Origin: a virus
Lineage: Duplodnaviria > Heunggongvirae > Uroviricota > Caudoviricetes
Reading direction: 5' to 3' (one strand)
Virus record (IMG/VR): IMGVR_UViG_2923318301_000001
Location: 1 to 46,847 of that record
DNA: 46,847 nt
Below, piece by piece: positions 7,200-9,815 of the stretch. The position numbers and the translations under genes were made by a program. The notes below the pieces were generated by a model. The model was given only the letters and a program-made list of their open reading frames with translations, was not told the DNA's origin and did no database searches. The first letter of the stretch is position 1, and each line of letters starts with the position of its first letter.

Positions 7200-7562
7200 T
7201 TAACGACCTGCTGCGCGGAGTTTTCCGTCAGGTTCACCGGCAAGAGTCAGTAACTGTCCCTGGTCTTCCTGCAGAATAGTCAGGCGACCACCGCGATTGA
7301 CATACATCGGCGTTTCGGTGGTGTCTTCTTCGGAAATTTTCCCGCGGTTAGTCGGGCGAACATATGAGAGTTTGTGTTTGATTTTCACTCGGTTCTCATC
7401 AAACGGTTCGATTTCCAGGTTGAGCGAGACCTTACCTTTGGTTTTCGTGTTCATCACACCGGAAGCGACTTCACTGAGAACTGCGCCGATTTTGGTTTCA
7501 AATACGCCGCCGTCCAGCTCCCCGATAAATGCCTGCACATCAGTACTGCGTTCGCTAGCCAT
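7200..7562 (-). CDS. yfdP: Phage early protein, YfdP-like
   Basis: 120 aa from ATG at 7562 (MASERSTDVQ...), GAGGAG ribosome-binding site upstream; the track's 226-aa extension runs into a GC-rich structured region and reads Arg/Pro-rich, so rejected. Confidence 0.7.
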   Translation of the reverse strand: MASERSTDVQAFIGELDGGVFETKIGAVLSEVASGVMNTKTKGKVSLNLEIEPFDENRVKIKHKLSYVRPTNRGKISEEDTTETPMYVNRGGRLTILQEDQGQLLTLAGEPDGKLRAAGR

Positions 7563-7599
7563 TTTGCTGCTCCTCATCATATCGACCCTGCAAGGTCGG

Positions 7600-7860
7600 T
7601 TAGTTTCTCCACAAAACAGAGAAGAACACCTGCGGTGACTGCCGCCCGGATGGATTGGGTTATGAGCCCGTCGTCCGGTGATGCTCTTCTCTGTTTTGTA
7701 AAAAGGACGGTACCAGCCGGAAGCAAGGGTACAAGCTGGTACCGCCAAGACTACACACAGCATAAAGTTGTGGTGCCGGGTGCCTCCCGGTGCCTGGCGA
7801 AGGTTGCACACCAGGCGGGTGGGTATCCACAGAAGGTCGACTGTCAGCCTCAACCTTAAC
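7600..7860. other. GC-rich, highly structured non-coding block (candidate structured RNA or regulatory element)
   Basis: Perfect 15-bp inverted repeat 7611..7625 / 7685..7699 enclosing 59 nt; 10-bp inverted repeat 7708..7717 / 7735..7744; further stems at 7776..7790 and 7792..7816; visibly GC-rich against AT-rich neighbours; every overlapping ORF reads as low-complexity. Confidence 0.35.
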
Positions 7861-8030
7861 CCGCGTGCGCTGAGCCGCATTCACCACAACGCTAAGGATT
7901 CTCTCTGGTTGAAAATACTTAGCTGTTATGTGCCTGCTTTTAGCCACATCAGGCGAGGTGGACCTAGTTATTCCCCAACAACAAGGATTCGGTTAATCTG
8001 GTTATCCCCAACAATGCAAAAGGAAAAGAA

Positions 8031-8465
8031 ATGTCCGGTAATATCTATACGCTGTACAAATCCCACTGTGAAAATGTTGGAAAGTATCGGGGCATTGAAA
8101 TCAGTGGGGTAGTGTCATCAGTCGAAATAAGCAAAGTTGAATCAAGGGCAACATTACTTACTCTTTTGGACCTTGTCTTACATGAGCACCGGAAGAAATT
8201 CGGCACTCCCTATAATCAGTTGAATGGGAAAAAGGCTCTGGTTCACCTTATTCTGATGAAGCATCACTGGATGCCAAAACAGATTAATGAGATGAAATTT
8301 GATGAACTTCTTCTTTCAATTCAGGATGAACTCACACTTGATAAAATAAGCGTAACCGCCCAGAAATTTTTAGATTATCGAGACTGGAGATCACAAATTC
8401 ATCACTTTGATGATTTTGACGAAAATGAATGGGATCCTAATTTGTCTGCACAATATCTAAAGTAA
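8031..8465 (+). CDS. Hypothetical protein, AT-rich gene in the immunity region (position of rex/sieB in lambda)
   Basis: 144-aa ORF; AAGGA ribosome-binding site before ATG; opposite orientation to the early-left operon; AT-rich; no transmembrane segment or motif recognised. Confidence 0.6.
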   Translation: MSGNIYTLYKSHCENVGKYRGIEISGVVSSVEISKVESRATLLTLLDLVLHEHRKKFGTPYNQLNGKKALVHLILMKHHWMPKQINEMKFDELLLSIQDELTLDKISVTAQKFLDYRDWRSQIHHFDDFDENEWDPNLSAQYLK

Positions 8466-8640
8466 CATCCTGTGATAAAACCGTGATTTCCTGATCCAGT
8501 TTTTTTAAGGAGTCTATTGTTTCCTGTCGATAAGACAGCACTTCACGAAGCTGGTTTATAGCTGCCAGCTTCTTTGTCATCCACTCATAAATTTCCTCAT
8601 CTGTGTAGCCAGGCGCGACGATTTTGGGTTCTGTTTTGTG
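8437..8640 (-). CDS. Hypothetical small protein, first leftward gene after the cI-distal operator region
   Basis: 67 aa from second ATG (MHKTEPK...), AGGAGA ribosome-binding site 7 nt upstream; 3' end overlaps the convergent 144-aa ORF by 29 bp. Confidence 0.45.
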   Translation of the reverse strand, partial: HKTEPKIVAPGYTDEEIYEWMTKKLAAINQLREVLSYRQETIDSLKKLDQEITVLSQDVTLDIVQTN

Positions 8641-8703
8641 CATTTCACATCTCCTCAAGTTATCAGTTACTTGTTGATGGGGACCAGATTGTTAAAGAGC
8701 TAA

Positions 8704-8725
8704 GCGTCCTGTAGGGCGCTTTTTT
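8704..8725 (+). terminator. Putative intrinsic terminator (plus strand)
   Basis: Stem gcgtcc / gggcgc with loop tgta followed by TTTTTT. Confidence 0.5.
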
Positions 8726-8804
8726 GTTGCTAACGAATCATCCTGGACTTCATATGCCCCAGGCGGCTACTTCGTGGGCGTCCTGCCTGTTCGTTATCTT
8801 TGAT

Positions 8805-8880
8805 ATAAAATCTAACTTAACTTAGTTATTATGGCAAGAGAAAACACCAAACTTTTCTTAGTTCGGTGCCTTAGTTAGAG
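8805..8880. promoter_or_regulatory. Putative OL/PL operator-promoter region
   Basis: Repeated CTAA..CTTAG half-site motifs (ctaacttaacttag, cttag x2) matching the motif seen in the cI-cro intergenic region; lies downstream of the cI stop. Confidence 0.4.
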
Positions 8881-8890
8881 AAGAGAGGTC

Positions 8891-9517
8891 TTAGAGTTCG
8901 TATTGAACTCCTTTGACTACACCAATGATAAGGCAATTACCATTGATAGGGATGTTGGGATACCGAGGATTTAATGGCACTAAAAACTTTTGAGGGCCAT
9001 CGATGACTAATTTTTTTACTGTAGCTTCGTTTGTTCCATCAAGTCGAGCGATGACTATTTTTCCATGACGAGGTTCTGCATCTGGATCTACAATCACTGT
9101 TGCGCCTTCTGGTATTGTTGGGAGGCCATTAGGGTTAGTCATGGAGTCACCTTTAACCTCTAATGCAAATGAGTTATCACCAATCTTTAATGATGTATCT
9201 ACCCACTTGTCCACTTCACTAAACACTTCTGCTGCCCTGCACTCAGTAAACTGCCCAGCCTGAACCCACGATATTACAGGAACTCTGCGCATGTTTGTGA
9301 CGAGTTTGCCTTCAAACTCAGCACCATAAAGAATGTAATCTATTGACGTATTGAAGAACTTCGCTAATTTCGAAAGTGCCTCCCCACCAGGGGTATTGAT
9401 GTCTTTCTCCCAGTACCCCACAGCAACGTCGCTTACTCCACAAAATTTACCCAATTCTTTCTGGGACGTTCCGGTAACTCTTCTCAGAGCTTTTATACGC
9501 TGACCAACCGTTTCCAT
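8891..9517 (-). CDS. cI: CI-like prophage repressor (HTH domain plus S24 LexA-type autopeptidase domain)
   Basis: 208 aa; N-terminal XRE-type HTH (QKELGKFCGVSDVAVGYWEK), C-terminal S24 motif GDSM and downstream Lys; divergent from cro. Confidence 0.85.
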   Translation of the reverse strand: METVGQRIKALRRVTGTSQKELGKFCGVSDVAVGYWEKDINTPGGEALSKLAKFFNTSIDYILYGAEFEGKLVTNMRRVPVISWVQAGQFTECRAAEVFSEVDKWVDTSLKIGDNSFALEVKGDSMTNPNGLPTIPEGATVIVDPDAEPRHGKIVIARLDGTNEATVKKLVIDGPQKFLVPLNPRYPNIPINGNCLIIGVVKGVQYEL

Positions 9518-9614: not shown

Positions 9615-9815
9615 ATGACAACTGACGATATCGAAAGCTACTTCGGCAGTATTGAGAAAGTTGCTGCTTTTTTCGGCATAACAACTGAAGCCGTTTATCA
9701 GTGGCGAAACCGTCCGGGCCAGTTAATTCCAAAAGGACGTGCAGCAGAAGCTGCATATAGAACTTGCGGACGGTTGCCATTTAAACCTGAGCTTTATGAA
9801 AAATCTAATGGATAA
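9615..9815 (+). CDS. cro: Cro-like HTH regulator
   Basis: 66-aa HTH protein divergent from cI; GGAGG ribosome-binding site. Confidence 0.7.
   Translation: MTTDDIESYFGSIEKVAAFFGITTEAVYQWRNRPGQLIPKGRAAEAAYRTCGRLPFKPELYEKSNG

Follow-up and report, generated by a model that had tools for sequence, protein, structure and literature searches.

The small RNA (sRNA) sRNA-17 is a 193-nt transcript of Escherichia coli K1 strain RS218, encoded by a prophage of the mEp460 type and defined by 5' and 3' rapid amplification of cDNA ends and Northern blot (PMC7719688). The paper that described it drew no connection to STnc100, gave no structure, and treated yfdP as a trans target (PMC7719688). Copies of STnc100 are transcribed in lysogens of enterohaemorrhagic E. 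coli (EHEC), and one of them was verified by Northern blot. [quoted passage not shown] Here we compared with these RNAs a block at positions 7563-8030 of IMG/VR record IMGVR_UViG_2923318301_000001, a stretch of 46,847 nucleotides (the window) containing an SfV/SfIV-like lambdoid prophage that adjoins tRNA-Arg(CCU). The block separates the immunity genes from yfdP and borders an open reading frame (ORF) for a 144-aa protein. We consider it likely that the block is a non-coding leader of the early-left operon, read leftward, that its upstream half is a small-RNA gene of the STnc100, PasD and sRNA-17 kind, and that the ORF is independent of it. The block is a divergent, sub-threshold variant of a known prophage sRNA family at a known sRNA locus, fused to a tRNA-like leader; it belongs to a common class, in which it is ordinary, and is not a new kind of system.

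A sequence-only reading of this DNA had held that nothing in the block matched a known architecture, which did not survive comparison with known RNAs. At gathering thresholds an Rfam scan of the window returned the argW tRNA only and nothing in the block. A permissive scan placed STnc100 (RF02076) at 7920..7697 on the minus strand with 43.4 bits (gathering cut-off 47 bits; E 1e-7) over model positions 1-206, a full-length match, and the locus was found to be the positional homologue of the published sRNA-17. The predicted small RNA consists of a structured 5' core, a single-stranded linker and an intrinsic terminator, laid out as follows.

7700..7891, minus strand: predicted small RNA of about 190 nt, of the STnc100/PasD/sRNA-17 kind (subtype 'A1'), placed by the Rfam match and the position of sRNA-17.
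7765..7891, minus strand: core domain, in which helix P1 closes a multi-helix junction, described by covariance model R1.
7882..7890, minus strand: 5' strand of P1, GUUGUGGUG, pairing with 7775..7767 (CACCACAAC) over 9 bp.
7793..7815, minus strand: hairpin P4, CCUGGUG-UGCAACCUU-CGCCAGG.
7771..7792, minus strand: 22-nt core CACCGGGAGGCACCCGGCACCA with hairpin P5 (CCGGG-AGGCA-CCCGG, 7790..7776) on the 3' strand of P1.
7746..7766, minus strand: single-stranded linker UUUAUGCUGUGUGUAGUCUUG, 21 nt, candidate seed or Hfq-binding region.
7700..7746, minus strand: intrinsic terminator with a 12-bp stem, GGCGGUACCAGC, a 17-nt loop and GCUGGUACCGUC, then CUUUUU.

The relevant strand is the minus strand, which corrects the sequence-only reading. 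Since a U-run follows the 10-bp stem on that strand only, the block shares the leftward reading direction of the early-left operon. The minus-strand fold of 7563-8030 reached -186.3 kcal/mol versus -152.3 +/- 6.3 for shuffles (z -5.37, with 0 of 100 dinucleotide shuffles equally stable), confirming that the block is heavily structured; the plus-strand fold gave a z of -3.19. The repeats and stems that the sequence-only reading had listed were all found in place. Its perfect 15-bp inverted repeat was the outer part of a 25-nt repeat (7611-7635 / 7675-7699, 84% complementary), its perfect 10-bp repeat was present at 7708-7717 / 7735-7744, and the direct repeat TCCCCAACAA had copies at 7972-7981 and 8005-8014. 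The contrast in GC content was likewise real, at 0.555-0.585 over 7600-7899 versus 0.355-0.42 over the ORF. Missing from that list was an additional 9-bp inverted repeat (7767-7775 / 7882-7890), which brackets and closes the whole upstream domain. The check that it had proposed, covariation behind the stems, was also borne out, in that helices covaried in relatives. A genuine structured non-coding RNA block thus lies between the immunity genes and yfdP, and the suggestion that it might be part of a long leader, that of the early-left operon, was upheld.

The core domain was examined in an alignment of 27 representatives, Salmonella phage ST64B and phage P1 included. Exact motifs served to gather the homologues, which in part accounts for the invariance of those motifs. 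A few alignment rows were also read as additional 'loci', which left the counts unchanged. The covariance model R1, built from this alignment with the window itself in its seed, scored 74.5 bits at 7891..7765, its sole hit in the window, and 71.6, 80.1 and 75.0 bits in ST64B, phage P1 and locus L406, respectively; the Rfam STnc100 scores of ST64B and phage P1 were 35.1 and 33.4 bits. All representatives had a common architecture of closing helix P1, a 5' hairpin, a variable middle, hairpin P4, and an invariant hairpin P5 stacked on P1. The outer pairs of P1 covaried: alignment columns 5/138 were GC in 13 representatives, AU in 12, GU in 2 and unpaired in 0, and the covariation score of the helix was 0.211 versus 0.101 for shuffled alignments, a value reached by 0 of 500 shuffles. 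In phage P1 the closing helix was GUUGCGGUG/CACCGCAAC. The closing helix UGGUG/CACCA and 3' hairpin of STnc100 were both found in the window, the latter identical at 22 of 22 bases (7792..7771). The exact CACCGGGAGGCACCCGGCACCA occurred in at least 120 IMG/VR contigs that otherwise had no BLAST-detectable similarity to the window and formed 16 sequence clusters. Moreover, locus L193 kept the P5 loop with a compensated stem (GGUGG-AGGCA-CCACC).

A second conserved interaction joined the loop of P4 (7806..7800, CAACCUU) to a complementary stretch at 7857..7851 (AAGGUUG). This long-range pairing, which as a property of STnc100 was inferred in the present analysis and does not come from Rfam, recurred in almost every cluster between the P4 loop and the 13 nt past the 5' hairpin, with at least 10 different sequence pairs. 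The mean longest cis complementary run was 6.96 nt versus 5.51 +/- 0.22 when partners were permuted, and 0 of 20000 permutations gave a value as high; with Watson-Crick pairs only, the means were 5.81 and 4.03. The pairing formed a pseudoknot in most members and was nested in two; in the window it is probably a pseudoknot. ST64B kept the long-range pairing and had lost the competing local hairpin.

The interior of the core was exchangeable. At this one locus several unrelated interiors stood within the frame GUUGUGGUG ... CACCACAAC in cassette-like fashion (L130, L133, L190, L193, L239, L240 and L243), and the differently filled P1 frames kept the same downstream elements. The linker's GCUGUGUGUAGUCUUGGCGG was retained in ST64B, L193 and the e14 prophage of K-12, and a target search within the prophage found no site complementary to the linker anywhere in the window. 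As in STnc100, the single-stranded linker (7766..7746) was followed by a Rho-independent terminator (7746..7700). A riboswitch or attenuator was considered and rejected: no alternative pairing between the 3' half of the core and the terminator arm was seen on inspection, and the minimum-free-energy fold keeps both. In several family members, the commonest cluster included, a sigma-70-like promoter read by eye lay directly upstream of P1, and the terminator, also read by eye, lay 60-90 nt downstream. In the window, a sigma-54-like TGGC..GGCA string was spotted by eye at 7946..7931.

The position of sRNA-17 was obtained by placing the published intergenic and sRNA coordinates and the supplementary 'full length' primers on mEp460. 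Its ends fell at L243 1357..1549, at the first bases of P1 and the last of the terminator's U-run, in a locus collinear with the window, upstream of the same module B (described below), small hairpin and yfdP. The window therefore has the locus and transcript frame of sRNA-17, whose interior sequence it does not share, and the ends of the transcript in this phage, carried over from sRNA-17, would be those at 7891 and 7700. The authors' report of 'no Rfam homolog' for sRNA-17 is explained by the differing core interior of mEp460. In 5426 complete E. coli genomes, the 7700..7891 element was found at 80% coverage or more in 1830; the 1.5-kb stretch around the block had matches in 2898, of which 361 covered most of it.

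The downstream half of the block, between the terminator and yfdP, was structured as well.

7611..7699, minus strand: module B, a three-way junction with a 25-bp closing stem.
Arm 1 of module B: apex GGGCUCAUAACCC.
Arm 2 of module B: GCGG-CAGUCA-CCGC.
7583..7598, minus strand: small hairpin CGACC-UUGCAG-GGUCG, shortly before the ribosome-binding site of yfdP.
7200..7562, minus strand: yfdP, first early-left gene past the leader (Shine-Dalgarno sequence GAGGAG 7575..7570, ATG 7562..7560).

Module B is a tRNA-like leader element that was previously undescribed. Compared by its letters, and not by a tool, with the known sequence of E. coli tRNA-fMet, its apex GGGCUCAUAACCC is that of the initiator anticodon stem-loop, with its three G-C pairs. 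Arm 1 was paired in 95.8% of alignment cells, with 4 pairs changed on both sides (covariation 0.290 versus 0.154), and variation in arm 2 and in the long stem was compensated. The motif ACGGGCTCATAAYCCAATCCAT occurred in at least 120 viral contigs and in two settings. As in the window, it followed the terminator and preceded yfdP; in Klebsiella-type phages it came directly after tRNA genes downstream of Q, with a 6-bp closing stem and then NCCA. Klebsiella phage GZ7 (L004 ~2503-2580) and 13 other Klebsiella phages carried unannotated homologues of about 70 nt in late regions. In phage P1 (L003 2440-2500) the ban operon had, among tRNA genes, a B-like element placed directly 5' of the A-like core; it overlapped the start codon of the predicted gene upl. 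Module B was tried as a tRNA and rejected: ARAGORN made no call with its default or reduced thresholds, nor in mitochondrial mode, and thresholds of 60-80% brought up meaningless calls only. tRNA and tmRNA (transfer-messenger RNA) finders run on the block and on module B homologues likewise returned nothing credible, and the homologues had no Rfam tRNA hit. The stem of the small hairpin varied with its pairing kept, as CGGCC.. and CGCCCC.. (in rows cut at the 3' end) and in full as GGCGG/CCGCC in ST64B.

The surroundings of the block were then described by the following features.

7921..8030: region between the RNA and the ORF, with two direct repeats GTTAT(T)CCCCAACAA (plus strand, 7966-8014) and the ribosome-binding site of the ORF.
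8031-8465, plus strand: 144-aa gene of the ECs1072 family, AT-rich, an accessory gene ('moron') that lies antisense to early-left transcription.
8738..8793, minus strand: conserved element in the leader of the early leftward promoter (PL), a candidate put-like antiterminator RNA with blocks as in HK022 putL and putR.
8891-9517, minus strand: cI-like repressor gene.
9615-9815, plus strand: cro.
Minus strand: early-left genes yfdP, yfdQ and yfdR, onward to xis and int.

The 144-aa protein belongs to a genuine family (NCBIfam 'ECs1072', phrog_5286), whose homologues were few and confined to enterobacteria. It had no Pfam or PADLOC hit, and its AlphaFold2 model (predicted local distance difference test, pLDDT, 83.4; all-alpha) had no convincing structural relative. 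The region 7921..8030 is probably the promoter/operator region of this ORF, and the direct repeat a regulator-binding or promoter element: the repeat-bearing stretch accompanied ECs1072-family genes in two loci that lack the RNA core, L405 and, as an analogous repeat, L404. By contrast, the 70 nt closest to the RNA (7961..7891) go with the RNA. An early-left ORF of 68/73 aa (phrog_1744, 8437-8658, minus strand) shares 29 nt with the 3' end of the convergent 144-aa ORF. Since two plus-strand terminator-like hairpins lie inside or behind it (8547-8572 and 8702-8721), the transcript of the 144-aa gene probably runs antisense across the phrog_1744 ORF. In another phage group, late regions (L033 5453-6243, L050 5248-5962 and L324-L397) had an ECs1072-like gene that runs on the opposite strand between Q and the lysis genes; a canonical STnc100 with a good TTGAAA-17-TAAATT promoter lay about 150 nt from it, divergently oriented.

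The element at 8793..8738 has the CGAAC..GGC and AGGATGA blocks of both HK022 put sites, occurs once in the window, and is conserved in ST64B with a compensated stem (CCUGG/CCAGG versus CCGGU/ACCGG). An element of this type stood upstream of module B in 90 of 161 loci. Its fold z-scores were not significant, and as a put-like antiterminator it is a lead and not a finding. Operator-like CTTAGTT repeats lie at 8800-8880 and a promoter-like site at 8837..8809; the element follows shortly after the probable PL. On the right of the cro-side genes of ST64B (L005 21-97), Rfam isrK was matched with 64.3 bits, above its cut-off, together with a weak c4-a1b1; neither is present in the window.

Two competing explanations concern proteins. 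That the block is a decayed protein-coding gene can hardly be right. PGAP (the Prokaryotic Genome Annotation Pipeline) marks a 'frameshifted hypothetical protein', a homologue of K-12 YmfH, at 7577-7887 on the minus strand; the K-12 e14 prophage holds a 92.7% copy of the block, annotated ymfH, with an intact 103-codon ORF over the same sequence (L407 2505-2816); and some phage records call ORFs within the block or lengthen yfdP, by 106 codons across it in the Kati and SfIV records. The sequence-only reading had seen no credible coding frame, and codon-phase, indel and ORF-consistency tests agreed. It had also foreseen that alignment might reveal a frameshifted gene, which PGAP asserts and which the phase, indel and covariation evidence contradicts. 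Compared with ST64B (~78% identity), the block had substitutions spread evenly over the three codon phases (29/28/30), and the indels, of 1, 20, 1, 4 and 1 nt, were not multiples of 3. Deposited records do not agree on the frame and strand of the ORFs that they call over the block: the SfIV and PhiR49_1 records call ORFs on its opposite strand, and the SfV record has none and annotates a rho-independent terminator at the same place as that at 7700..7746. Neither phase bias, frame-keeping indels nor an ORF consistent among relatives was found for the block, and its translations are rich in Arg, Pro and Gly. Changes in the helices are compensatory, unrelated interior sequence is exchanged inside a conserved helix frame, and hairpin loops are swapped wholesale with their stems retained; between e14 and the window the terminator loop is wholly different and the stem is kept, which is the pattern of an RNA and not of a protein. 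Both conserved motifs, the hairpin P5 and the loop of module B, carry lesions in the e14 copy. Since the source of the PGAP pseudogene call is K-12 'YmfH', itself apparently an ORF call over the same RNA, both calls look wrong. In a preprint, over-expression of ymfH was among the prophage triggers of RcaT, the toxin of retron-Sen2; the ymfH clone carries this RNA, so the trigger phenotype may reside in the RNA. The sequence-only reading had also likened the block and the ORF to RNA-plus-protein systems, and it is very improbable that the 144-aa gene, divergent from the RNA, works with it as a single two-part unit, whether the protein regulates or binds the RNA or the pair is a defence or counter-defence module. 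The same divergent adjacency does recur elsewhere with another RNA subtype, in the order Q, ECs1072-like gene (opposite strand), canonical STnc100 and holin. All 21 sampled loci with this late-region type of protein carry the RNA on the opposite strand, 19 of them about 150 nt off and 2 about 1.25 kb off, and a 72% relative in E. albertii retains the arrangement; the late-region relative, 24-25% identical in alignment and ~30% by tblastn, leaves a residual hint of a link to the RNA. However, each 'type' is essentially one haplotype, so that independent observations are few, and a relative is present at only 2 of about 120 canonical-core loci. The gene is missing from 26 of 43 loci with the RNA subtype of the window, ECs1072-family genes occur without the core in L399, L401, L403, L404 and L405, and in SfV, PhiR49_1, ST64B and K-12 e14 the ORF slot holds other genes or nothing. 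Both elements are accessory genes favouring the same insertion hot-spots, and the lack of Pfam, PADLOC and fold matches to the protein gives a two-part unit no further footing. We regard the 144-aa ORF as an independent accessory gene that shares insertion hot-spots with the RNA, and a functional tie as unlikely.

Two other explanations accept the RNA and give it a different task. It is unlikely that the 5' core is a cis-acting regulatory RNA deciding PL read-through of the 7700 terminator into yfdP..int, either as a processive antiterminator of the put or EAR kind or as a ligand- or factor-sensing attenuator. The block is situated in the PL leader, and the two ORFs between cI and the block that were scanned for families gave no N-type protein. 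In L190-type phages the homologous core begins a few nt past a PL-like promoter flanked by operator palindromes, and in ST64B only leader appears to separate an operator-like PL region from the core. In phage P1 the core stands directly before tciA without a terminator, and the pseudoknotted architecture with invariant nucleotides would suit such a role too. Against this, several members, the commonest cluster included, resemble stand-alone units of promoter and terminator, and such units have been seen as discrete RNAs. Long and unstructured, the linker shows no conservation from one cluster to another; inspection revealed no alternative antiterminator pairing that would engage the terminator arm; and phages exchange the core interior at this locus, which an element that binds RNA polymerase would not be expected to show. 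The sequence-only reading had allowed for an antitermination RNA; the block is unlike HK022 put in sequence and architecture, no put blocks were found in 7563-8030, and the better put-like candidate is the one at 8793..8738. Conservation of the 5' domain and of module B suggests that they bind something, and it is distinctly unlikely, in our estimate, that core (A) and module B together form a phage RNA device engaging a host or defence protein instead of an ordinary base-pairing sRNA scaffold. Such a device could be a decoy or competitor for readers of the initiator anticodon stem-loop (VapC-type tRNA-fMet nucleases of Shigella and Salmonella, MetRS (methionyl-tRNA synthetase), or initiation factor IF3 with the 30S subunit), or an RNA sensed by, or interfering with, retron-type defences. 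It fits the CCA-ended B in phage tRNA arrays, the cassette-like interior of A and the 'ymfH' trigger of retron-Sen2, and it fits the travelling of A and B together in three arrangements, as A-terminator-B in the window and ST64B and as B then A in the ban operon of phage P1. The preferred explanation, a small-RNA gene in a non-coding leader, has evidence against it as well. The STnc100 score of the window is below the cut-off, the STnc100 5' hairpin AAUCCCCCUGUGCGGAGGGG is replaced in the window by AAUGCGGCUCAGCGCACGCGG, and the mEp460 core scored 25.6 bits with R1 and had no Rfam hit. No consensus sigma-70 promoter was found upstream of P1 on the minus strand (7891-7990), so the 5' end might come from processing of the PL transcript. 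No target is known, and a pseudoknotted junction with invariant nucleotides is odd for a base-pairing sRNA, suggesting that the 5' domain has a function of its own. RNA-seq counts of sRNA-17 were very low (PMC7719688). In the sRNA-17 mutant, a chloramphenicol (Cm) cassette replacement, yfdP rose ~95-fold (PMC7719688); this is no proof of lost insulation, because the Cm replacement retains the terminator hairpin.

If the upstream half is an sRNA gene of this kind, it may work as follows. The 5' domain of about 125 nt, closed by the 9-bp helix and held by an invariant hairpin and the long-range pairing, would precede a 3' part that resembles a base-pairing sRNA, with an unstructured linker, terminator hairpin and U-run. 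The linker would be the likely pairing and Hfq-binding region, so that Hfq dependence and regulation in trans may be expected from this layout, and the Rho-independent terminator would set the 3' end at ~7700. The unit could be described as an RNA 'moron', an accessory cassette of promoter, gene and terminator inside a phage operon. From this cassette a lysogen would produce a short transcript that stops at the terminator, which may also act as an insulator that shields yfdP-yfdQ-yfdR-xis-int from read-through; upon induction, PL transcription would have to pass the terminator, perhaps aided by the put-like 8793..8738. The downstream half, module B and the small hairpin, would most likely serve transcript processing, stability or translation control.

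About one third of complete E. coli genomes, K-12 included, carry the ~190-nt element under the label of a hypothetical protein, YmfH or a frameshifted pseudogene, and its identity as an RNA corrects this widespread mis-annotation. The comparison also joins sRNA-17 to STnc100 and PasD, the latter two already connected by the 2026 preprint. The 5' domain of the family, with its covarying, probably pseudoknotted structure and invariant nucleotides, looks more like a binding domain than a carrier of a seed. Moreover, the terminator together with read-through from the cassette may explain the 'yfdP regulation' reported for sRNA-17.

Together, these results allowed the locus to be set beside the known systems that it recalls. 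From ToxIN-type and retron systems it is set apart by the lack of tandem RNA repeats and by an ORF without a Pfam, PADLOC or fold match. Like HK022 put, it is a structured RNA that lies ahead of terminators in the PL leader, in a lambdoid phage that apparently lacks N, whereas put consists of two stem-loops of ~70 nt without sequence similarity to this closed multi-helix junction of ~125 nt, which has its own terminator. Module B recalls a tRNA in its initiator anticodon stem-loop GGGCUCAUAACCC, and its Klebsiella-phage homologues do so in following tRNA genes, in their 6-bp closing stem and in their NCCA end; it differs in having neither D arm nor T-loop motif and, in the window, in its 25-bp closing stem and lack of CCA. 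DicF, of the dicBF operon in the Qin prophage, is similarly an sRNA within a lambdoid immunity-region operon, with an intrinsic terminator as its 3' end and a similar layout of linker and terminator, and phage P1 annotates a 'dicF-like region' in the operon of its core copy; however, DicF has 53 nt and no structured 5' domain, and Rfam DicF scored only 19.4 bits on the window (cut-off 48). STnc100 and PasD of Salmonella, EHEC and enteropathogenic E. coli are closer, sharing the full-length model match, the identical 22-nt core, the closing helix, P4 with its long-range pairing, the single-stranded linker, the intrinsic terminator and carriage by lambdoid prophages. The window differs from them in its score below the curated cut-off, in the change of the 5' hairpin from AAUCCCCCUGUGCGGAGGGG to AAUGCGGCUCAGCGCACGCGG (Rfam marks non-canonical pairs there, and only the CU..GCG loop letters are in common; the AAUGCGGCUCAGCGCACGCGG subtype is common to ST64B, phage P1 and a few viral contigs), in having no clear promoter of its own, and in its place in the early-left leader next to module B instead of between Q and the lysis genes. 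sRNA-17 has another core interior (variant A3), so that the shared sequence is limited to P1, the first 15 nt, the end of the linker and the terminator; it has the same locus, the same helix P1 (GUUGUGGUG/CACCACAAC), the terminator, module B, the small hairpin, and yfdP downstream.

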